Assembly (NCBI GenBank): GCA_963745075.1
Contig: CAVUWV010000024.1
Span: forward strand, 256,001-320,000
DNA: 64,000 bases
Reading direction: 5' to 3'
From: Candidatus Hydrogenedentota bacterium
GTDB taxonomy: Bacteria; Hydrogenedentota; Hydrogenedentia; Hydrogenedentales; SLHB01
The notes below the pieces were generated by a model. The model was not told where the DNA came from. It did not search any database and worked only from the letters and a program-made list of their open reading frames with translations. Every line of letters starts with the position of its first letter. The first letter of the stretch is position 1. Positions 45,042 to 60,354 of the stretch are shown piece by piece. The position numbers were made by a program, and so were the translations under genes.

Positions 45042-46495
45042 TTAGACCACGTACGTGGATGCAGAGGTCGCGCCGCCGCGGCCGGTCCAGTTGGTGTGGA
45101 AGAACTCGCCGCGCGGTTTGTCGACTCGCTCATAGGTGTGCGCGCCGAAATAGTCGCGTTGCGCCTGCAACAGGTTGGCCGGCAGCCGTTCGCAACGGTA
45201 GCCGTCGAAATAGGCCAGCGCGGAACTGATGGCCGGTGCGGGAATGCCCATATTCACCGCGGTCGACACGACCCGCCGCCACGCTGCCTGGGCCTTGGAC
45301 ACGGCGTCCTGGAAGAACGGATCGAGCAGCAGGTTGACCAGGTCGTGGTTATCGTCGAAGGCTTCTTTGATCTTGCCCAGGAAAGCCGACCGGATGATGC
45401 AGCCGCCGCGCCACATCAGTGCGATACCGCCGTAGTTCAGGTTCCAGCCGTATTCCGCCGCGGCCGCGCGCATAAGCTGGTAGCCCTGCGCGTAACTCAC
45501 GATCTTCGACGCGTAGAGCGCCTGGCGAAGGTCGTCGACAAACGCTTTCTTGTCGCCGTCAAAGGCGCTCACCTGCCCCTTGAGGTGTTTGGCCGCTTCG
45601 ACGCGCTCATCCTTGATCGCGGAGAGACAACGCGCGAACACGGCCTCGCCGATCAGCGTGAGCGGTTGTCCCGAGTCCAGCGCCGCCACGACGGTCCATT
45701 TGCCCGTACCTTTCTGGCCGGCGCGTGTCCAGAATCAGATCGACCACGGCATTGCCGTCGTCGTCCTTGTGCCCGAGGATGTCGCGGGTGATTTCGATGA
45801 GATACGAATCCAGTTCGCCCTCGTTCCATTCGGCGAAGACCTCGTGCATTTCCTCGTTCGACATGCCGAGGCCCTGCTTCATGAGCTGATAGGTCTCGCA
45901 GATCATCTGCATGTCGCCGTATTCGATGCCGTTGTGGACCATCTTGACGAAGTGGCCCGCACCGCCTTCGCCGACCCAGTCGCAGCACGGCGTCGCCGTC
46001 TTCGGTCTTCGCGGCGATCCCCTGGAAGATCGGCTTCACGTGCTCCCACGCCGCCGGCGAGCCGCCCGGCATGATGGATGGTCCCTTGAGGGCCCCTTCT
46101 TCGCCGCCGGAAACGCCCGTGCCGATGTAAAGCAGGCCCTTGCTTTCGCAGTACTTGGCCCGCCGGATCGTGTCCGGGAAGTGGCTGTTGCCGCCGTCGA
46201 TGATGATGTCGCCCTTCTCCAGGTGCGGCGCCAATTGCTCGATGAAATCGTCCACCGGTTGGCCCGCCTTGACGAGCATCATCACCTTCCGCGGGCGCTT
46301 CAGGCTGGCGCAAAGTTCCTCGATGCTGTGGCAACCCTTAAAATTCTTGCCCTTGCCGCGGCCCTCGATGAACTTGTCCACCTTCGCCACGGTTCGGTTG
46401 TATACCGCAACGGAGAAGCCCTTGCTCTCCATGTTCAACACCAAATTCTCGCCCATGACGGCGAGGCCGATGAGTCCAATATCCATTTCTGCCAT
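45042..46495 (-). CDS. gnd: NADP-dependent 6-phosphogluconate dehydrogenase (frameshifts near 45990 and 45720)
   Basis: [58 protein letters not shown]. Confidence 0.93.
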
Positions 46496-46642
46496 GAGTA
46501 GCAATCTCCTTAACAGGTCTGTGTACCGAATTCCCCCAACGCATGCATTTCCCGCGTGTCGGATTCTCGAATGCCCGCACCGGACGTGGAGGAAACGCAC
46601 AATGAGCCGATTGTACTACAAAACGGGGGGCAGAACGAAGGG

Positions 46643-49284: not shown

Positions 49285-49399
49285 AGGGACCGCAGCTTGG
49301 TGAGATACGAGCGACGTTGCCCCGGCCCTTGAACCCCGGCAAGTGTTTTGCTTGAATGGGCGGACGCACGGGGGCCGTCAGCACCAAGGGAGCCAATAC

Positions 49400-51515
49400 G
49401 TGGAGAACACCGTAAAGAATCCGTTGTGGAAAGTGTCGAGCATTTTTCTTATCGCGCTGTCGCTGTCGATGGGGTGGGGGATACGCGGCAATTACGGGCA
49501 CGAGTCCGGCGCGTGGATTCCCGGCGCACTCGCGGCGATGGCGATCGCGATCTTGTCGCAGCGCGAGGACTGGCGGCAGCGGGTTCATTACTTTGCGCTG
49601 TTCGGCGGGCTCGGGCTCGGGTTCGGCGGTTCCATCTCGTACATGTATGCCCTGTCCTTTTCGAGTTCCGGCTATCTGCCGTCCGCGTGGTATGGGTACA
49701 TGCTGGTCTTCTTCGAAGGTGCGCTGTGGTGCGGGCTCGGCGGCGCAGGGATGGCCCTGGCCGCCACCGCGAAGCGCGACCGGCTCACGGCGCTCATCGT
49801 GCCCCATGTGTTTTGCTATTGCCGCGCTGATTCTGCACAAATTGATCGAAGAGCCCGTCGCGGCGTTTCTGAATCCGCCCGCGGCGGAAGTGATGGACGC
49901 CACCTGGCACCGGCAGAAGAGTCCGCTCTACTGGTTCGACGCGGACTGGTTCTCGGCGTTGATGGTGTTCTTGGGCGTGTGCCTTTACGACCTGTGGAAC
50001 CGTCGACGGGATGCCCGATATGCCATGTCGGCGCTGCTGCTGGTGGCATTTCTCGCGGGCGGCGCACTGGTCGGCTGGGGCGTGCAACAGGGCGTGCGCG
50101 CCGCGGGGATGGAATCGCAGGTCAGCAGCTTCTTGGATGTTCCTCTCGCCGACCCCAGCGCCATCAACCCCACGACGGGCATCGCCTACGGCGATGAGAT
50201 CAACGAGCGCACGGGTGAGCCCTGGGGTTTGGACAACTTCCTGACGAACTGGCCGCAACCCTTCAGCGACTATTCCCAACACGTCGGCTGGGGCGTCGGA
50301 CTTTTCCTGGGGTGGATGCTGTACTTCCTCAACTTCGGGAAGTGGCGCAACGACAGCGGGCTGTTCCTGTACATGTCCATGGGGTGGATGGTGGGCTTCA
50401 TGCTGTTCCCCGTCTTCGGGACGGTCGTGCTCTACCACGTGGGCGTGGCCCTCAAGAACGCGGGCCACGACGTGTACGTGCCGCTCTTCGGCGGGTTCCG
50501 GTTCATGCCGCCCCGGAGCGACGACTGGGCGGGGATTCTGGGCGTGTTCGTTGGCGCCATTATTTACTGCGCGCGCAAGGGGTGGAAACCCGTCGCGCTT
50601 GGCGCGAGCCTCAGCGGGCTCATCGGCGGCATCATGTTTGCCTCGATGAAATTTTTCCGGTTCCTCCTGCTCATTCCGGGCAACAAGTGGCTTCACGAAG
50701 GTACCGTGCCGTCGGACTGGGCCTTCTACCAGAGCGCAAACTGGCACAGCTTCCTCGAACAATCCCAGGGCTTCGGCCACGGCATCGCCTTCGCCGTCAC
50801 GGCGGCGGTGTTGTGGTCCCGCGTGAAGGTCCATCGCGACGAGCCCCGCGTACGGCTCTGGACTGAACCCTTCGCGGTCGGGTTCGTCGTGCTGTTCATG
50901 ACCTACGCAAACATCTACAAGAACGTAGCGGAGTGGACCGGCGGCCAGACGAAGGTCGTGCCTGAATCCATGAGGCCGCCGCTGATCGCGGAACTCTTCA
51001 CTGGCCCGAACCATCCGATTACCTTGAGCGCGCTGACCTGGTTCAACCTCGCGTGGATCGCGGCGGGACTGGCCTTGATCGGGCTCATGATCGTTCACCT
51101 GCGCGGCCGGCGCGTCGAGATGCTGCCGTCCAGTTGGGTCGGGCGCGGCCAACTCATGTACGTGCTCGTGCTGTGGATCATGGTCCTCGGCAATTTCGAA
51201 CGTGCACTGCCCAACTTCGACGAAAATCGTCTGATTACCGAATGGGTGATCCTGATCAACGCGTGCATCGCCACCTTCCTGCTCGGATACCTCCCGAAAC
51301 CGACCGTGGAACTGAACGTCGAAGAGCCGGCGCCGTTTCGTCCCGGCCTCGCCCGCGTGTGGGCCATCGGTCTGCCCGTCGCTTTCGTCCTCATGACCCT
51401 GTACACCTTCGCCGAGCGCGGTGTCCTCGGCAGCACGCCCGTCTATCAGGACCGCTTCGGCCCCAACGCCGAGTGGGCCATCAAACCCATTCTGAAGGAG
51501 GGGAAGCATCGGTAA
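49400..51515 (+). CDS. Polytopic membrane protein of unknown function (frameshift near 49810)
   Basis: MGWGIRGNYGHESGA N-terminus, NWHSFLEQSQG, many TM helices. Confidence 0.75.
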
Positions 51516-51557
51516 GAGGCTGGAGTCCGGAGGCTGGAGGCGGGAGACTGGAGGGGC
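51516..51557 (+). repeat. Heptamer tandem array (GAGGCTG-like) x6
   Basis: gaggctg gagtccg gaggctg gaggcgg gagactg gaggggc immediately after the stop codon. Confidence 0.7.
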
Positions 51558-51609
51558 GCAGGAGAGTGAAGGGTGAAGACGTGCGTTTCGGTCGGGCTGG
51601 GGCGGCTCA

Positions 51610-51730
51610 GTGGGGCACGGGCGTCTCGCCCGTGGAGGGGGTCGAGTCGTAACGGCGGCTGGCGATGGGCTGTGTAATGGATCAAGACTGGGGAGGGGTA
51701 AAGAGCCAACGGGCGAGACGCCCGTTCCCC
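51610..51730. repeat. Inverted pair of REP-like palindromes
   Basis: GTGGGGCACGGGCGTCTCGCCCGTG (51610-51634) and AACGGGCGAGACGCCCGTTCCCC (51708-51730). Confidence 0.8.
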
Positions 51731-51892
51731 GTTGAGCCCGCCCTCCCTGGAAACCCACAGCGCGGCGGTTGGAATTGCGTGACATCAACTTCGCGAAGTA
51801 GATTCAGCGTGGAGGCGACGCGCGGGGCCATGTAATTTCAGTTTCCTGTGGCGTTTTGCAGTGGTGCGATTCAATGGATGCATGAGGTGGTG

Positions 51893-52996
51893 ATGCGAAG
51901 TTTCTTCCTTGCGCTTGCTTTGGCGATCCCGGTTGGCACATTCGGTCAAGGACCCCCCGTACCGGAGGACCGGATCGTATCGTGGATGCAGGAACTCAAA
52001 CCGTTGCCGAAGATCCATTACTCATGGCCGCTTCCCTACGAAACGATTTCTGACGACGTGTTGTTCGAGTACGTACGTTTGACCCACGCGTCGTCGCTCA
52101 GTGGCGAGTGGAGCAATCAAGAGGCGATCGATCGGGCGGTTGCGGTTTGTGGCCGGGTGAACGCCACCAAGCCGGAGATCCCGGCAACCATCGGCGTGAA
52201 CTATTCGGTCTGGCACAGGCGTTTTGGCAAGGAGTTGCCACCGACCGATACCGGGCCAACCTGCGAGGCGGAACTCGATCACCTGCGAACGCGCATGGAA
52301 GCCATTCGGGACGGGGTGGCGGAAGCGATCGAGAAGCATCAGGTCAACGTGACGGTCAGCGCCATCCTGTTCGACTCGGAACGGTTCCATACGAAGAAAG
52401 ACGATGCGCAGTGGAACGCGGCGATCACACAGAAATACAATGCGGCCTACGAGGTTGTTCGTGATGTTTTCCCCGAGGTGCGCGTCGAATGGTATGCACG
52501 CGGAGCCGTCCAGCCGGGGGCCTCGGCCACCGGCTGGAGCGAGTCAAAGTATTTCACGCTGGACGAAAAGGGGGAGTCCTTTGGCTGCTCGCTGTACGAG
52601 GTGCCGGAGATCGGATACACGCGGGCGATCTTTCGCCGGACCGCTGAGAACGCAGCACGGCATGGCTGTGAGGAGGTGACGCCGTGGATTGCGTTGGCTT
52701 CCGGGTATCGGCGTCAGACGGACCAGTATGATAAATGGTCGATCGATTGGAATTACGACCTCATTTACTCCTGGCAACTTGGGCGGGAACTGAATAATTC
52801 GTGGTTCGGAGTGCCCGAACGGGCCGAGCGCTTCGCGCCGTGGAACAAGGCGACGATTGCGGTCTTCTATCCCGAGCCGTTTGGCCGGTCGCCGCACTGG
52901 GGGCAGCACTTCGTCGCGTACGTCCGTGGCGCGAACGGAATCAAGGAACTGCCGGAAGAAAACGTGTCCGCAGATGACGCAGATTCTCAGAGTTGA
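51893..52996 (+). CDS. Secreted hypothetical protein (possible glycoside-hydrolase-like barrel)
   Basis: GAGG RBS, signal peptide, aromatic-rich sequence, ILFDSE motif. Confidence 0.65.
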   Translation: MRSFFLALALAIPVGTFGQGPPVPEDRIVSWMQELKPLPKIHYSWPLPYETISDDVLFEYVRLTHASSLSGEWSNQEAIDRAVAVCGRVNATKPEIPATIGVNYSVWHRRFGKELPPTDTGPTCEAELDHLRTRMEAIRDGVAEAIEKHQVNVTVSAILFDSERFHTKKDDAQWNAAITQKYNAAYEVVRDVFPEVRVEWYARGAVQPGASATGWSESKYFTLDEKGESFGCSLYEVPEIGYTRAIFRRTAENAARHGCEEVTPWIALASGYRRQTDQYDKWSIDWNYDLIYSWQLGRELNNSWFGVPERAERFAPWNKATIAVFYPEPFGRSPHWGQHFVAYVRGANGIKELPEENVSADDADSQS

Positions 52997-53129
52997 ACAC
53001 AAGAGCTTAGCGGTCCACCGATTGCACTGATCCACAGCGATTTCAAGATAGCCTCGGACAGAAGACCGCGTGACCAGTATAGACGCCATATGTTCCTCTG
53101 CGTCCATTCCAAAGCATGATATGATGCTC

Positions 53130-53224
53130 TGCGAATACGGGTCTTATGCCCGCGTTGCCGGAGGGGTCTCTTGCCGCAATCGTGCGGCTCAAGGGTGTTA
53201 TCAAGAAACCAGATAACCGTTGTT
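53130..53224 (+). other. attI-like leader, copy A
   Basis: 67 of 95 positions identical (one gap, hand alignment) to 54054-54147; both end at TTGTT just before a cassette-like gene. Confidence 0.55.
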
Positions 53225-53241
53225 CGGTGGGGGAAACGACA

Positions 53242-53700
53242 ATGGAACCACGAATCAGCATCATTACTCTGGGCGTCAATAGCATGCCGGTGTCGATCCG
53301 ATTCTACCGTGACGGGCTCGGATTCCCGACCGATGCGACGGACGACCGGAACTGGGCGATTTTCCGTACCAATGGAACGCGTCTCGCGCTTTACCCGAAG
53401 GCTGAACTCGCAAAGGACAGCGGCCCGGACACCACCCCTGCGGGCGGATTCTGCGGGATCACGCTGGCGCACAACGTCTCGAGTCGGGAGGACGTGGACA
53501 GGATCATTGAGCAGGCCGTCGCCGCCGGCGCCAGCCGGCTGAAGACTCCATCCGAAACGGAATGGGGGGGATACAGCGGGTATTTTGCCGATCCCGACGG
53601 ATATCTTTGGGAGGTCGCCTGGGGCGATGTTTGGGAGTATGACGAGAACGGAACCCTCTGGGGTGGATCACTGGGACCCAAACCATCACCGAACAAGTGA
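53242..53700 (+). CDS. VOC/glyoxalase family protein (gene-cassette ORF)
   Basis: ISIITLGV, FYRDGLG, ITLAHNV, WGGYSGYFADPDGYLWEVAW. Confidence 0.92.
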   Translation: MEPRISIITLGVNSMPVSIRFYRDGLGFPTDATDDRNWAIFRTNGTRLALYPKAELAKDSGPDTTPAGGFCGITLAHNVSSREDVDRIIEQAVAAGASRLKTPSETEWGGYSGYFADPDGYLWEVAWGDVWEYDENGTLWGGSLGPKPSPNK

Positions 53701-53752
53701 GTCCACGTTTTTTGTCGCCGACGCGCCAAGACCGTGATTCATGACATTCGCC
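53688..53752 (+). mobile_element. Integron attC site with mutated R' box
   Basis: R'' ACCGAAC, 5 nt, L'' AGTCCACG, centre, L' CGTGATT, 6 nt, R' ATTCGCC; R'' is the exact complement of GTTCGGT at 53222-53228. Confidence 0.75.
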
Positions 53753-53802
53753 GCGCAGAAAGGAGGCATCCCAACCGAGAAGTGCCTTCCGCTCTTCTGA
53801 TT

Positions 53803-53886
53803 GATTTGCAATTCAGATATTCGGGGCTTCGGGTTGCACGCCGCGGTCAAATTCCAAATCCGAATCACGAAATCCGAAACAAATCC
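53803..53886. repeat. Degenerate heptamer arrays (AAATCCG-like and complement)
   Basis: gatttgcaattcagatattcggggcttcgggtt and aaattccaaatccgaatcacgaaatccgaaacaaatcc. Confidence 0.55.
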
Positions 53887-53993
53887 GGATGGCCGAGAGG
53901 AGAAGGACCGAAACGTGGTATCGTGAATTTCCGAGCATGCACGCACGGTCTCGGCGGTGCAATGCAGCCTGGGTACGAGCGACCAGAAGCTGC

Positions 53994-54031
53994 GATTTCG
54001 ATCCCGATAGCGATCCCGATTTGGATGGGAA
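53994..54031 (+). repeat. Solo copy of the CGATNN hexamer arm
   Basis: GATTTCGATCCCGATAGCGATCCCGATTT identical to 54601-54629, with GATGGGAA downstream in both copies. Confidence 0.85.
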
Positions 54032-54053
54032 AGCGGAGGATGATTGAACATTT

Positions 54054-54147
54054 TGCGCATACAGGCTTTCGGTCAACATTGCCGGAGGGGCTGGTGCTGC
54101 GATCACGGGGCCTGAAGGTGTTATGATGAATCCCGAAAACAGTTGTT
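54054..54147 (+). other. attI-like leader, copy B
   Basis: Homologous to 53130-53224; ends GGTGTTATGATGAATCCCGAAAACAGTTGTT. Confidence 0.55.
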
Positions 54148-54156
54148 GGGGCTGAA

Positions 54157-54640
54157 CATCGAAATCGAAATCGGGATCGCTATCGGGATCGAAGAAATAT
54201 GGGACTTGGACACGAAAAGCTTGACGTTTACCGGCTTTCCATTGGCTACGTGGCGTGGGTCTACGAGAAGGCCGACAGCCTGAACGGCGTTCATCGAGCG
54301 GCAAGGGACCAATGGCTGCGTGCCAGTCAGTCGATCCCGTTGAACATCGCCGAAGGCAACGGCAAGACGGCCGCCGCGGATCGGCGGAGGTATTTCGAGA
54401 TTGCGCGAGGCTCGGCATTGGAGTGCGCGGCGATTCAGGATGTTCTGGTTGTCGGCAAGGCCCTGGATAACGTCGAGAGCCAAAGCCGCAAGGGGGAATT
54501 GGATCGTATGGCCGCAATGCTCAGCCGGCTGGGCGGAAGGGGCTACCAAGTCGGCGAGGAGATTGCCACGTACGGAAGCAGCGAAGACGCGTTCGATGCT
54601 GATTTCGATCCCGATAGCGATCCCGATTTCGATTTAGATG
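54157..54640. repeat. 37-bp inverted repeat arms bracketing the four-helix-bundle gene
   Basis: 54157-54193 is the reverse complement of 54604-54640 with one mismatch. Confidence 0.9.
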
Positions 54641-54678
54641 GGAAGGAATCCCAACATAGCGGATGCGCTGGACGCTGA
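54199..54678 (+). CDS. Four helix bundle protein (23S rRNA IVP / bAvd-like family)
   Basis: HEKLDVY, DQWLRASQSIPLNIAEG, FEIARGSALEC. Confidence 0.92.
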   Translation: MGLGHEKLDVYRLSIGYVAWVYEKADSLNGVHRAARDQWLRASQSIPLNIAEGNGKTAAADRRRYFEIARGSALECAAIQDVLVVGKALDNVESQSRKGELDRMAAMLSRLGGRGYQVGEEIATYGSSEDAFDADFDPDSDPDFDLDGKESQHSGCAGR

Positions 54679-54709
54679 TTCTTCGCGTCAGCGATCCTTG
54701 TCGCTGCCA
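54649..54709 (+). mobile_element. Integron attC site with mutated R' box
   Basis: R'' TCCCAAC, 6 nt, L'' GATGCGCT, GACGC/GCGTC stem, L' AGCGATC, 6 nt, R' GCTGCCA; CCCAACA complements TGTTGGG at 54144-54150. Confidence 0.7.
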
Positions 54710-54825
54710 AATTTGCCATTCCCTCCCCCTGCATGCTAGGCTATCGTGTTTGTTTTCAACGCCCAAGCATTCCAACACACCTCCTACCGGGATCGATGGA
54801 AGTAGGGTAGAAAGGGGTTTCAATT

Positions 54826-55581
54826 TTGAGAAGGCCGCTCGTAGCTGGAAACTGGAAGATGAACCACCTCGTGGGGACGGCGGTGGAGACTACCAACGCG
54901 CTGAAAGCGTTGGTGGCGGATGTGGATTCGGTGGACATCGTGATTTGCCCGGTGTTTACGGCGCTGGACGCGGTCGGGAAGGCGGTGGCCGGGTCGAATA
55001 TCCAACTCGGCGCGCAGAATTGCTATTTCAAGGAAAGCGGCGCGTATACGGGCGAGCTTTCGCCGCAGATGTTGCAGGACGTGGGGTGCACGTGGACCAT
55101 TATCGGCCACAGCGAACGCCGGCAATACTTCGGTGAAACCGATGACGTTCTTAATCAAAAATTAAAGTTTGCGCTGGGTGCGGGGCTCAAGGTCATGTTC
55201 TGCATCGGCGAGACGTTGGAAGAGCGCGAAGGCGGCAAGATGAACGACGTGCTCATCCGCCAGGTGACCAACGGATTGCAGGGCTTGGCGGAATCGGATT
55301 TCGCGAACATTTCCATCGCCTACGAGCCGGTGTGGGCCATCGGCACGGGCGTGACCGCTTCGCCGGAGCAGGCCCAGGAGGCCCACGCCTTCGTGCGCGG
55401 GTTGGTCAAGGATCAGTTTGGTGCAACCGTCGCGGACGGTTTGCGGATACAATATGGTGGCAGCGTCAAACCGGACAACGCCGCGGAACTCATGGCGAAG
55501 CCCGACGTGGACGGTTCCCTCGTCGGCGGCGCCGCCCTCAAGGCGGAAAGCTTCGCGGGTATCGTGAAGGCGTCGATCTAG
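54826..55581 (+). CDS. tpiA: Triosephosphate isomerase
   Basis: AGNWKMN, GHSERR, AYEPVWAIGTG, YGGSVK, LVGGA. Confidence 0.97.
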   Translation: MRRPLVAGNWKMNHLVGTAVETTNALKALVADVDSVDIVICPVFTALDAVGKAVAGSNIQLGAQNCYFKESGAYTGELSPQMLQDVGCTWTIIGHSERRQYFGETDDVLNQKLKFALGAGLKVMFCIGETLEEREGGKMNDVLIRQVTNGLQGLAESDFANISIAYEPVWAIGTGVTASPEQAQEAHAFVRGLVKDQFGATVADGLRIQYGGSVKPDNAAELMAKPDVDGSLVGGAALKAESFAGIVKASI

Positions 55582-55597
55582 GAGGCTGATAGCAGCG

Positions 55598-56206
55598 ATG
55601 CTGAATCTCATCTTTTCGTGGAATACCTTGTGGGTCATCATGTGGGCCCTTTATTTGCCGGCGTCGATCGGCCTGATTATCATCGTGCTTCTCCAGAAGG
55701 GGAAAAGCAGCGGGTTCGCGGGCGCCTTCGGTGTCGGCACGGGATCGGAAACCGTGTTCGGACCCCGCGCGCGCAAGAGTCTGCCGGTGAAAATGACCTA
55801 CGTCATGGCGGGCTTGTTCATGTTCTTGGCGATGAGCATGTCGTTGGTGGCCGGTCGCGTACACCGCGGTGTCGCGCCCGGAGAGGTGAAAGTCAGCGAG
55901 ACGGATACGGCGAACGACATCTACAACGATCTGCTGGATGGCACCTCCTCTACGGAAGCGCCGGCGGAGTCGACGAGTACCACGCCGGAAACGGCCGGTG
56001 GCATGGGCGCTGCGGAGACGACGCCCGAGAGTGCCCCGCCGATGGAGTCAACGGGTGAGGCAAGCCCGGAACAAGCCGCGACCCCGGAGGCGTCGTCTGA
56101 GAGCACAGCGCCAGCGGAAGCTCCGGCCAAGGCGGCCCCGGGGGAACCGGCGCCTTCCGAGCCCAGTGCCGCCTCTGGCGATGACGGCGCCAAGAGCGCC
56201 AACTAA
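55598..56206 (+). CDS. secG: Preprotein translocase subunit SecG with long acidic tail
   Basis: VLLQKGK.SG.AGAFG, second TM after K.T; follows tpiA. Confidence 0.88.
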   Translation: MLNLIFSWNTLWVIMWALYLPASIGLIIIVLLQKGKSSGFAGAFGVGTGSETVFGPRARKSLPVKMTYVMAGLFMFLAMSMSLVAGRVHRGVAPGEVKVSETDTANDIYNDLLDGTSSTEAPAESTSTTPETAGGMGAAETTPESAPPMESTGEASPEQAATPEASSESTAPAEAPAKAAPGEPAPSEPSAASGDDGAKSAN

Positions 56207-56231
56207 GTTATCGCATTTTATGTCATTAGTT

Positions 56232-56271
56232 CCGGCCCAAGGCGCACACTGGCTTTGGGCCGGTTGTTTTT
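56232..56271 (+). terminator. Probable Rho-independent terminator
   Basis: CCGGCCCAAGGC...GCTTTGGGCCGG followed by a T-rich tract. Confidence 0.7.
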
Positions 56272-56326
56272 CATCTATATGAGGTTGACGAAAGTGCCGG
56301 TGAGCGTGAGAAATCCCGAGAAATCG

Positions 56327-56483
56327 ACATCCCCCTTGATCCCCCTTCAAAGGGGGAGGGGGCCGGCCGAGTTTATTGGAGTTTTTGGGAGTGCTGAGCC
56401 AGGCCTGGATTCTCTGTGGTGCGCTTCAAACGGAGGTCCGACACTTGTCGGTTCCCCCTTTGGAGGGGGATCAAGGGGGATGT
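56327..56483. repeat. Inverted pair of 31-bp CCCCCTT-type repeats
   Basis: ACATCCCCCTTGATCCCCCTTCAAAGGGGGA and its reverse complement (one mismatch) at 56453-56483. Confidence 0.85.
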
Positions 56484-56549
56484 TTTTAAGTTCCCCTCAC
56501 CAGTCGCAACCTGAGTCCTCACGACCTTCGGGGGAAGGAGCGCGCGTCC

Positions 56550-57803
56550 GTGGATAGGATTCTGATTCGGGGCGGACGACCGTTGCGTGGCTCGGTGCAG
56601 GTGCGCGGGGCCAAGAATTCCGCTTTGCCACTGATGGCTGCATCCATCCTCGCGGAAGAGGCCTGCACGCTTCACAACATTCCGTGCCTCCACGACGTGT
56701 TCACGATGGACAAGCTTCTGTCGTCCTTCGGGGCGAAGATCGAGTTCACCGGCCGCTACATGACCATCGACGCGTCCACCCTCGAATCTTGCGTCGCCCA
56801 TTACGATCTCGTCCGCAAGATGCGCGCGTCTTTTTTTGTACTGGGACCCTTGCTTGGGCGCTTCGGCAAGGCCCGGGTTTCCTTGCCCGGCGGTTGCGCT
56901 ATCGGCACACGTCCCGTTGATATCCATCTCAAAGGATTGGAGGCGCTCGGCGCGTCGATTGCCATCGAAGACGGTTACGTGTCCGCCGAGGGGACGCTGA
57001 AAGGCACGGACTACTCGCTCGACTTTCCCAGCGTGGGCGCGACGGAGAACCTGATGATGGCCGCGAGCCGCGCCCGCGGGGTCACGCGATTGAACAACGT
57101 GGCGCGGGAACCCGAAATAACCGACCTCGCCCATTTCCTCAACGCCATGGGCGCGCAGATTTCCGGCGCGGGCACGGACCTGATTACGATTGTCGGCGTG
57201 GACGCCCTCGGCGGCACGGAACACGTGGTCATTCCGGACCGCATCGAAACCGGCACCTTCCTGATCGCGGGTCTTGCGACCGGCGGAGACGTGACGGTCA
57301 TGAACGCCAATCCCGATCATCTGCCGACCTTTTTGAACAAGCTCCGGGAGGCCGGCGGCGACGTGGAGGTCCACGGTACGCGCATCCGGGTTACCGGCAA
57401 AAGCGGTCTCAAGGGCACTGACGTGACCACGCAGCCATTCCCGGGGTTTCCGACTGATTTGCAGGCCCAGATGATGTCCATGCTTTGCGTGGCCGAAGGG
57501 GTCAGCATCATCCGGGAATCGGTGTTCGAGAATCGCTTTATGCAGGTGGCCGAATTGATTCGGATGGGGGCTGAGATCGATCTCGACGGCAACGCTGCGA
57601 TCGTACGCGGCGTGAATGCGCTTAGCGGCGCCCCGGTGATGGCGTCCGACCTGCGGGCGAGCGCGGCGTTGGTCGTTGCGGGTCTCGCAGCCGCCAAGGG
57701 GGAGACCTCCATCGCGCGGGTTTACCATATCGACCGCGGCTACGAACGGATTGAAGAGCGCCTCGCCAGCATCGGCGCCGATATCGAACGCGTCCGCGAC
57801 TGA
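56550..57803 (+). CDS. murA: UDP-N-acetylglucosamine 1-carboxyvinyltransferase
   Basis: GAKNSALP, MRAS, LPGGCAIGTRP, SVGATEN, PGFPTDLQ, DLRA, IDRGY. Confidence 0.97.
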   Translation: MDRILIRGGRPLRGSVQVRGAKNSALPLMAASILAEEACTLHNIPCLHDVFTMDKLLSSFGAKIEFTGRYMTIDASTLESCVAHYDLVRKMRASFFVLGPLLGRFGKARVSLPGGCAIGTRPVDIHLKGLEALGASIAIEDGYVSAEGTLKGTDYSLDFPSVGATENLMMAASRARGVTRLNNVAREPEITDLAHFLNAMGAQISGAGTDLITIVGVDALGGTEHVVIPDRIETGTFLIAGLATGGDVTVMNANPDHLPTFLNKLREAGGDVEVHGTRIRVTGKSGLKGTDVTTQPFPGFPTDLQAQMMSMLCVAEGVSIIRESVFENRFMQVAELIRMGAEIDLDGNAAIVRGVNALSGAPVMASDLRASAALVVAGLAAAKGETSIARVYHIDRGYERIEERLASIGADIERVRD

Positions 57804-57975: not shown

Positions 57976-59283
57976 ATGATAAAAGTAACGGAAATCCGAG
58001 ACGATGCTACCTTCGAGGCCGTGGTCAAACGCATCACCGGCCGCGGCGAGGACAACGAAGCCGATGCCCAGGAAGCGGAGAGACTCGACGCGACTCAGGC
58101 CATCGTCGACGACGTCAAAGCGCGCGGCGACGCCGCTGTCGTCGATCTGACCGAACGTTTCGACGGCGTAAAACTCGAACCGGATCAATTCGAGATCACT
58201 GTCAAGGACATGGACGCGGCCATGGCGGGCGTCGACAAGGAAACGCTCGCCGCGCTCGAACGTGCCCATGACAACATCTCGAAATTCCACAAGAAGCACC
58301 TTAGGCAATCTTGGGAAGAGACGGCTCCCGACGGGACCATCCTCGGCCAGCGGATCACGCCAATCGAAAGTGTGGGATTGTATGTCCCCGGCGGTACGGC
58401 CTTCTACCCCTCGTCGGTGCTGATGAACATCGTGCCTGCGCGTGTGGCCGGCGTGAAAGAGTTGATCATGGTCTCGCCACCTTCGTATGAAGGGAGCATT
58501 CATCCGCTTGTCCTGGCGGCCGCCCGGATTGCGGGGGCATCGCGCGTCTTCCGCATCGGTGGAGCGCAGTCTATCGCCGCGCTCGCCTACGGCACGGAGT
58601 CCATTCCATCCGTGCTCAAGATCGCGGGACCGGGGAACATTTACGTGACGCTCGCGAAGCGGCTGGTGTCGTCGATCTGCGATATCGACAAGGACGCCGG
58701 ACCGTCCGAAGTCGTGGTCCTGGCAGACGCGACCTCGGATCCCGACCAGGTGGCCCTCGAGCTTCTTGCGCAAGCCGAACACGATGTCGACGCGCGCGCC
58801 ATGCTCGTTACGTCGTCGGCGGAATTGCTCACGTCCGTGCGCGAGTCCATCACGAATCACCTCGATACGTTGTCCCGGGCGACCATTATTCGCAAGGCGC
58901 TCAAGGAATGCGGGGAAGTCTTTATCGTTCGGACCATCGAAGAAGGCGCGCAGTTGACCAACTTAATTGCGCCCGAGCACCTGTCCATCCAGACCGAGGA
59001 TCCCCGCGCCCTGTTCGATGCGATTCCGAACGCGGGCTGTGCGGTCCTCGGCGGCGGCACCTCCGTCGCAGTCGGAGACTACTACGCAGGGCCGAATCAC
59101 ATCCTGCCTACGGGGCGCAAGGCGCGCTTTTCCTCGCCCTTGACGGCGGAGGATTTCCGTAAGGTTACCAGTATTATTTCCTTTTCGCCGGAGCGTATGA
59201 AAGAAGTGGGGGACGACATCATCCGGCTTGCTAAGGCCGAGAAGCTCGATGCCCACGCCCGCGCCGTGGAGATTCGCAAATGA
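57976..59283 (+). CDS. hisD: Histidinol dehydrogenase
   Basis: GLYVPGG, YPSSVLM, GGAQSIAALAYG, AGPSE, QAEHD, APEHL, GPNHILPT. Confidence 0.96.
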   Translation: MIKVTEIRDDATFEAVVKRITGRGEDNEADAQEAERLDATQAIVDDVKARGDAAVVDLTERFDGVKLEPDQFEITVKDMDAAMAGVDKETLAALERAHDNISKFHKKHLRQSWEETAPDGTILGQRITPIESVGLYVPGGTAFYPSSVLMNIVPARVAGVKELIMVSPPSYEGSIHPLVLAAARIAGASRVFRIGGAQSIAALAYGTESIPSVLKIAGPGNIYVTLAKRLVSSICDIDKDAGPSEVVVLADATSDPDQVALELLAQAEHDVDARAMLVTSSAELLTSVRESITNHLDTLSRATIIRKALKECGEVFIVRTIEEGAQLTNLIAPEHLSIQTEDPRALFDAIPNAGCAVLGGGTSVAVGDYYAGPNHILPTGRKARFSSPLTAEDFRKVTSIISFSPERMKEVGDDIIRLAKAEKLDAHARAVEIRK

Positions 59284-60354
59284 AGTACGGCCGCGAAATC
59301 CTTGCCAACGTAGAGGGCTATGTGCCCGGCGAGCAACCGTCGGGTTCCGTCATCAAGCTGAACACCAACGAGAATCCCTATCCGCCGTCCCCGCGCGTGT
59401 TGGACGCGCTGTGGTCTCTGGCCGCGGAGAACGTGCGCAAATACCCGGATCCGGTGTCGCTCCGTCTGCGCCAAGCCTGCGCCGAACGGTATGCGTATGA
59501 GAGCGCTGATTGGGTGATTGCGGGCAACGGGATGGACGAGTTGCTGTCGCTGGTGATTCGTACCCTCGTCGATCCGGGCGACACGATACTGTCGCCCTAT
59601 CCGACGTACACGCTTGTACGAGACGCTCGCGGCCCTCCATGGCGCCAAGTATACGACCGTGGATTTGGGTGATCGCTTCCAATTGCCGGAAGAATTCTTC
59701 TCGACGCCCGCGAAACTCTGTTTTCTGCCGCGCCCGAACGCGCCCTCAGGTGTCTGTGCGCCGCGCGAGGCAGTGGAACGGCTATGTGCGTCTTTCGATG
59801 GGGTGGTCGTGATTGACGAAGCCTACGTGGATTTTGCAAACGACAACTGCATGGATTTCCCTCAACGTTACGAAAATGCCATCGTGATGCGAACGTTCTC
59901 AAAGTCGTTCAGCCTGGCGGGAATGCGTTTGGGAGTCGCCGTTGCGCGACCGGAAATCATTGCGGAGTTCTTGAAGGTCAAGGATTCGTATAACCTGAAT
60001 CTTGCAACGCAGTCCGCCGGCCTCGCCGCGATTCAAGACTACGACTACATGCTTTCCAACGTGTCGCGGGTTAAGACCACGCGCGATCGGCTTTCGGCGT
60101 CGCTGCGGGATTTCGGGTTCGACGTCCCCAAGTCGGAATCGAATTTCGTGCTGGCCCGGTGGAATCGTGAGCCGTCCGCAAAGGAAATCTTTGAAAGGCT
60201 GAAGGAGCGGTTAATCTACGTGCGGTATTTCGACGCGCGCGGATTAGACAATGCCCTTCGGATCACGGTCGGCACCGATTCGGAAGTGGACGCCCTGCTC
60301 GATGCTCTGCGCGGTATCCTTTACGGAAAGCCGGATACCACCACTGGCGAATAG
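59280..60354 (+). CDS. hisC: Histidinol-phosphate aminotransferase (frameshift near 59610)
   Basis: YVPGEQP, KLNTNENPYPPS, DEAYVDF, RTFSKSFSLAGMRLG, LRITVG. Confidence 0.92.

Follow-up and report, generated by a model that had tools for sequence, protein, structure and literature searches.

Orphan attI platforms in a Hydrogenedentota genome as probable remnants of reverse integrons

Two adjacent cassette units in a stretch of 64,000 nucleotides from a Candidatus Hydrogenedentota bacterium (contig CAVUWV010000024.1 of assembly GCA_963745075.1; hereafter, the window) are, with good probability, what remains of reverse integrons from which the integrase gene, intI, was deleted, and represent an attI-bearing kind of CALIN or SALIN. 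Each unit comprises a leader, one cassette and a decayed attC site (Table 1). Judged by its homology, the leader is the spacer plus attI of a reverse (head-to-tail) integron family; what survives is a remnant platform and not a complete integron. Below, the present genome is denoted G000 and others by further G numbers, its contigs by C numbers (the window lies on C24) and individual loci by L numbers.

Table 1. Features of the two units and their surroundings (positions within the window)
Feature	Position	Strand	Evidence
Leader A, post-intI spacer plus left half of attI of a putative reverse integron	53077..53224	+	nhmmer E 5e-27
Cassette 1, attI crossover to attC1 crossover	53222..53746	+	Start GTTCGGT, R'' 53688-53694 complementary 7/7
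VOC/glyoxalase-family gene, 152 aa, stop within attC1	53242..53700	+	PF00903 E 4e-17
attC1, decayed: R' triplet ATT, weak terminal stem	53688..53752	-	Covariance model 14.3 bits
'Trailer' of ~100 bp after attC1	53746..53842	+	Homologues behind attC at other Hydrogenedentota platforms
Two genome-wide intergenic repeats, 46 and 13 loci	53848..54026	.	Repeat search
Leader B, shorter and more drifted putative spacer/attI copy	54034..54147	+	Profile E 1e-9
Cassette 2, mostly a four-helix-bundle gene between 37-nt inverted repeats	54145..54703	+	R'' 54649-54655
37-nt inverted repeats in cassette 2	54157-54193 / 54604-54640		Family at 13 genome loci
Four-helix-bundle (23S rRNA-IVP family) ORF, 159 aa, ends within attC2	54199..54678	+	PF05635 E 2e-18
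attC2, decayed: R' triplet GCT, 6-nt left spacer	54649..54709	-	Covariance model 17.1 bits
Chromosomal tpiA upstream region; first bases form R' of attC2	54703..54825	+	attG-type junction by G003/G004 alignment

The GTT cores were located at 53222 and 54145, where the original prediction had placed them, with the crossover G|TT falling between 53222 and 53223 in leader A and between 54145 and 54146 in leader B. The reported likeness of the leaders was reproduced: 67 of 95 aligned positions were equal, with one gap, against only 17 of 60 past the GTT. The leader is therefore shared and stops at the GTT, as had been claimed, but it is longer than the ~95 bp first given to it, as the profile extents in Table 1 indicate. 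The core of leader B has drifted and that of leader A is near consensus. A scan of 51400–56600 against Rfam produced a single chance match (E 2.4), so the leader corresponds to no known RNA family; no structure was common to the leader folds, whose z ranged from -2.0 to +1.6. A scan of 52950–54850 detected no sigma-70 promoter; an extended -10-like TGnTATGAT at 53117–53125 is shared with the copy on C13 and is not family-wide.

A leader profile (nhmmer) made from 31 platforms, all from other genomes, recovered exactly five copies in G000: the two in the window and one each on C13, C31 and C33. These are 72–75% alike, and the DNA past the GTT differs at all five. On C13 the leader is followed by a 2.1-kb cassette with a matching attC, and on C33 it heads a multi-cassette array; on C31 two small genes lie behind it, no attC was detected, and the final 14 codons of IntI are retained at 79% identity. 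The C13 cassette (192552–194695) reads by eye as a multiply frameshifted DNA methyltransferase gene. Dispersal of the leader, as had been supposed, was thus observed both within the genome and in 13 of 135 phylum genomes, different copies preceding different cassettes. The proposed stand-alone device for single cassettes was not borne out, since the platform is a reverse-integron remnant and the copies at C33 and L008 head multi-cassette arrays.

Some copies of the leader still adjoin an integrase gene, a point that the prediction had proposed to check. At L049 and L110 a complete IntI (TIGR02249, 483 and 487 bits; cut-off 265) precedes the same leader, head-to-tail. Wherever intI survives next to the leader it lies upstream on the cassette strand, and where its 3' end survives by the leader the distance from the intI stop to the GTT is 165–179 bp, mostly 167–168. 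Homology of the window leaders to this post-intI region stops at the GTT, which points to an attI with a G|TT crossover. The upstream-intI layout was therefore seen in complete form at L049 and L110, and as a stub on C31 of G000. Complete IntI genes of G019 and G031 have the same layout with a different spacer. A Xer/dif-type reading of the 6-bp core had been entertained and was dropped after intI turned up upstream.

This homology also bears on whether the units are plain SALINs, that is, single cassettes at chromosomal attG sites behind a leader that would be an unrelated repeat or one present by chance. Unrelated repeats do abound in this region, and the right junction of attC2 is attG-like. 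Against this, complete integrons have a homologous spacer behind intI, and each of the five genome copies of the leader stops exactly at the cassette GTT; both window cassettes start at attI leaders and only the right end of attC2 resembles attG. The SALIN reading is refuted for the left junctions and is scarcely credible overall.

Several further elements were observed around the spacer. The attI core (TTAT..AGAAACCATATA) is directly repeated in it, at about -149 and -26, and TCTTATG boxes related to that core recur in the G019/G031 spacer type; such repeated boxes are candidate accessory IntI sites. At seven distinct loci (8 of 75 rows), namely L021, L025, L033, L072, L099, L107 and L123, intI or its stub is closely preceded by a helix-turn-helix gene or fragment that is putatively excisionase-like; it hints at a carrier element. 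A promoter-like TTGCCT-N17-TATACT lies upstream of remnants at four loci (G000:C13 192340–192380, G019:C3, G014:C19 and L050), and is possibly the old intI promoter.

Within G000 itself, the absence of intI from the 64-kb window, as first stated, extends to the whole assembly; this is 89.7% complete, so that an IntI could be missing from it. The genome has four tyrosine recombinases, by sequence reading XerD, XerC and two phage-type integrases. All five TIGR02249 matches, to XerC, XerD and a phage-type integrase, were below cut-off, so no intI beside an array was recognised, and tblastn with the cognate IntI found only the 14-codon stub on C31. Not a letter of intI is left at either window copy, and their history is accordingly read from homology.

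The frequency of intI loss was assessed across the family. A 31-nt core pattern matched 3 loci in genome contigs, 82 in metagenomes and 1 in viral contigs, and a longer leader pattern matched 13 of the 135 phylum genomes, while its reversed control gave 0 matches. After removal of 12 duplicate loci, the leader was present in 99 of 114; with 3 partial matches dropped and the 5 own copies added, there were 106 leaders in 75 clusters. Full-length intI was reached by 4 of the 75 clusters and was unbroken in 2 (L049/L076 and L091/L110), with an early stop at L107 and a frameshift at L072. Five clusters end at contig edges, and in the other 66 most or all of intI is gone, with scattered breakpoints. 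A contiguous 3' piece of intI was kept in 33 clusters; the spacer was about whole in 10 clusters and less than whole in 23. At the short-break loci L031, L055, L113 and L123, pieces of intI survive beyond a second deletion, so the class without remnant is overcounted. Among the 57 metagenome and viral clusters, for which the core was the only search pattern, full-length intI occurred in 4 of 52 informative cases, a count to be read with the caveat that assembly may disfavour active integrons. Loss of intI is the usual state for this attI family.

The left breakpoints are spread over -26 to -982. Within 2 nt, 3 of 65 coincided with a top-strand GWT where 4.8 were expected, and within 4 nt 9 against 8.5; left ends made by IntI were accordingly rejected for lack of enrichment. 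Bottom-strand GWT within 4 nt gave a nominal p of 0.017 in one of eight breakpoint tests, which is not trusted because of multiple testing and related loci. Scattered breakpoints without top-strand enrichment fit ordinary deletion better than IntI-made ends. Across the 75 platforms, 56 of the 59 positions between -59 and -1 were 72–100% conserved, although the last 31 of these positions were forced by the search pattern in most rows; from +3 on the value fell to 32–81% (consensus GTTAGGC).

The leader family ranges over Hydrogenedentota, a Synergistaceae genome and metagenome contigs. IntI matches at E 1e-40 were obtained in 7 of the 135 phylum genomes (from at most 15 best candidates in most genomes). 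Only G020 has both such a match, to IntI fragments, and the leader pattern, the other 12 of the 13 leader-positive genomes having no IntI match at that threshold. G019 has two shortened leaders, and its complete IntI, of the other spacer type, is on a different contig. When plasmids were searched with the intI end plus leader, the 15 matches listed, of at least 5000 matching records, covered only the intI part (query 3–131) and none of them covered 80% of the query; the phage records searched had no match.

These distributions are relevant to the possibility that the platforms are live satellite landing pads, orphan attI sites being kept while cassettes are gained and lost through IntI supplied in trans by another locus or a passing element, which is close to the original prediction. 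At L057 and L085, 3 kb upstream are shared at 96% with no IntI match, and whole cassettes differ from the G|TT onwards; L035 and L105 provide further cassette arrangements, and L084 and L087 have a common shortened intI and a different first cassette. The attI core is also highly conserved after intI loss, the near-consensus core of leader A included. Against this, that conservation is in part a product of the search pattern, no IntI was found in G000 or, at E 1e-40, in 12 of the 13 leader-positive phylum genomes, and both window attC sites have decayed. The middle of the spacer is swapped at L105, which implies that arrays can be exchanged with no IntI involved, by homologous recombination within the conserved leader; the turnover after intI loss at L057, L085, L035 and L105, all loci of other organisms and not the window units, fits service in trans but fits homologous swapping also. 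Among the sequencing runs listed, none of RNA contained this genome, and three DNA runs share 6–7% of genome words, in scattered short contigs only, which weighs neither way. Live landing pads are thus a possible but minority explanation. A wider version, in which orphan attI platforms would form a dispersed network that exchanges cassettes through transient IntI, outnumbers complete integrons by more than 10:1 and accounts for a share of the CALINs and SALINs credited to attG, is rather doubtful.

The attC sites were evaluated with a home-built covariance model of 25 first-cassette sites from other loci, picked by heuristic from 32 matches; the 2 that belong to this genome, 3 that were doubtful and 2 longer than 80 nt were left out. 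In the window, attC2 ranked first (E 0.065) and attC1 second (E 0.33) of 11 matches, both on the expected strand and with modest scores, which upholds the claim that both are real. At both units the cassette ends in R''-L''-L'-R' with an extrahelical base, and the alignment of attC2 places one extra base in its R''-L'' spacer. Their description as dead is in line with their decay: with ATT and GCT as R' triplets both sites are degenerate, and intact AAC/GTT triplets are present at neither. The fold of attC1 was no better than shuffles (z -0.48) and it fails a stricter attC heuristic; attC2 passed this, with L-box pairing of 7/7 and a fold z of -1.8. The two same-strand sites lie within 4 kb with no intI nearby, as in a CALIN. 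Genes elsewhere in the window also appear to be frameshifted (45042–46600, 49343–51515 and 59280–60354, splitting genes that by eye are gnd-like, membrane-protein and hisC-like); these may be assembly errors, hence caution over single-base calls of decay.

Complementarity of R'' to the start of its own cassette, which had been claimed at 7/7 for both, held for cassette 1 but was 6/7 for cassette 2, the earlier figure having counted one base upstream of the crossover. Across platforms, a first attC with R'' matching the cassette start was found at 32 of 65 (30 of 65 within the 1500-bp reach of the controls), compared with 8 of 150 random GTT controls. The remaining 33 platforms, leader A, C31 and C33 among them, fail the attC heuristic; this, together with a dispersal to five copies for which the reverse-integron reading does not account, counts against that reading. 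Applied to six loci, the covariance model found attC sites on C33, on C13 and two in G014, and none on C31. Genome-wide it was uninformative, with nothing at E 1 among 150 scored candidates of 3674, and a strict regular-expression census gave 10 matches of which only that on C13 was credible.

The tandem arrangement is not peculiar to the window. Homologues of the trailer occur at G000:C13, G014 (three), G020 and G019, and 6 of 7 copies lie directly behind an attC-like site. G019 repeats the tandem of the window, with an intI stub and then a second leader behind the trailer, and the order leader-cassette-trailer-leader recurs there and in a Synergistaceae genome.

At the right end, homology to the same-genus relatives G003 and G004 begins at 54702, right of attC2, and both have GTT where the window has GCT at 54703; being close kin, they amount to about one observation. 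This alignment start and the GTT suggest that a chromosomal GWT ahead of tpiA was the site to which attC2 became joined, and its right end is, on that comparison, an attG-type junction. Other relatives align only from 54733 (G005), 54827 (G001) and 54810 (G002). The interval from the membrane-protein gene to tpiA (51515–54702; also L128 and L142) varies among relatives: in G003 the place is taken by 3.2 kb of different DNA, and in G005 it contains a gene that by eye is methyltransferase-like. Because relatives differ between these genes, a search for the empty site defined no left junction, and insertion and deletion at the attC2 end are indistinguishable.

Dispersal and tandem copies would both be explained if intI stub, leader, cassette and attC formed a circle mobilised by IntI, excised at an upstream GWT and landing at attG. 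The chromosomal GTT at the end of attC2, the recurring tandem, and the common trailer and upstream motif in several genera are in keeping with this. Yet the left breakpoints scatter without enrichment for top-strand GWT, which largely refutes the circle as a general route, and the genome copies are too divergent, at the identities given above, to favour it; it is considered improbable.

The cassette contents were also described. Models for FosA and bleomycin resistance scored the VOC gene far under their cut-offs. The four-helix-bundle ORF scored above the TIGR02436 cut-off, and the second of the two repeats between the units (13 loci) matches the right arm flanking this gene. The repeats of cassette 2 (54157–54640) begin 12 bp past the crossover and stop 8 bp ahead of R''; the cassette may be a repeat-flanked mini-element converted into a cassette. 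At the other four-helix-bundle gene of the genome (C32:109019) the flanking inverted repeats are different ones, and the 220 bp inspected contain no attC. REP-like inverted repeat pairs lie at 51599–51743 and 56327–56483; the family of the former has 30 genome matches and occurs 0.5–2.7 kb from 3 of 4 leader loci. An ORF of 367 aa at 51893–52996 has a signal-peptide-like start and no Pfam or NCBIfam match, and was not found when searched for in 5 same-genus genomes.

Under the favoured reading, of reverse-integron remnants, the ancestral unit would have comprised intI, a spacer of ~165 bp ending in attI, and one or more cassettes. IntI, then local or from elsewhere, would have catalysed the attI x attC recombination that brought in the VOC cassette and the four-helix-bundle cassette. 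A reaction of attC2 with the chromosomal GTT upstream of tpiA, by IntI, may have made the right end, either deleting the remaining array or landing attC2 there. Ordinary deletions would have consumed intI from the upstream side, while the attI-proximal spacer, with its putative role in driving cassette expression, survived. Later decay of attC1 and attC2 would have left the two genes fixed in effect.

Reverse, or inverted-integrase, integrons of the Treponema denticola type (PMC3607928, PMC7691350, PMC4889954) likewise have intI transcribed toward attI and cassettes, attI past the intI stop, and attC cassettes; the present case differs in its deleted intI and in having five platforms per genome, not one. 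The spacer/attI here is a distinct family, compared with the T. denticola type by layout. The inverted-integrase group is reported to be paraphyletic (PMC4889954), and attI lies downstream of intI in archaea (10.1101/2022.02.06.479319). Like CALINs and SALINs (PMC4889954; 10.1101/2022.09.11.507474), the window has attC cassettes without a neighbouring intI, and the CALIN definition would cover its two same-strand sites 0.9 kb apart, but each window cassette has an attI platform of its own. CALIN searches covered attC, intI pseudogenes (found near 15 of 279) and attI of classes 1–3 only, and to these a reverse-integron origin would be invisible; PMC4889954 reports that 95% of integrase-less clusters have no recognisable intI pseudogene, and gives intI loss as one of four proposed origins. 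Insertion at attG has been proposed as a source of integrase-less cassettes, and IntI excisions outside the insertion point delete genome pieces (10.1101/2022.09.11.507474); the joining of attC2 to a chromosomal GWT resembles these processes, whereas the left junctions in the window are attI and not attG. Widespread intI deletion and frozen arrays are reported in Xanthomonas (10.1101/2025.06.18.660453), and attI at the head of a CALIN in the Shewanella prophage M16-3 (PMC9892861). Those platforms mostly occupy a single ancestral locus (ilvD) or a single prophage, unlike the dispersed, tandem, reverse-type copies described here. Among open-access main texts, no paper was found that treats this attI family or integron platforms of Hydrogenedentota. 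Components and chemistry alike were already known; what is new is the dispersed, tandem and mostly intI-less state of one searchable attI family, together with an attG-type right junction.

The origin of integrase-less cassette clusters is an open question, and a conserved, searchable attI shows an alternative to attG insertion. In this family intI is nearly all removed, often with no protein-level trace, while attI persists. The leader is therefore a concrete marker for sorting CALINs and SALINs by origin, and the matched IntI/attI pair could be used to ask whether orphan platforms are still served in trans.
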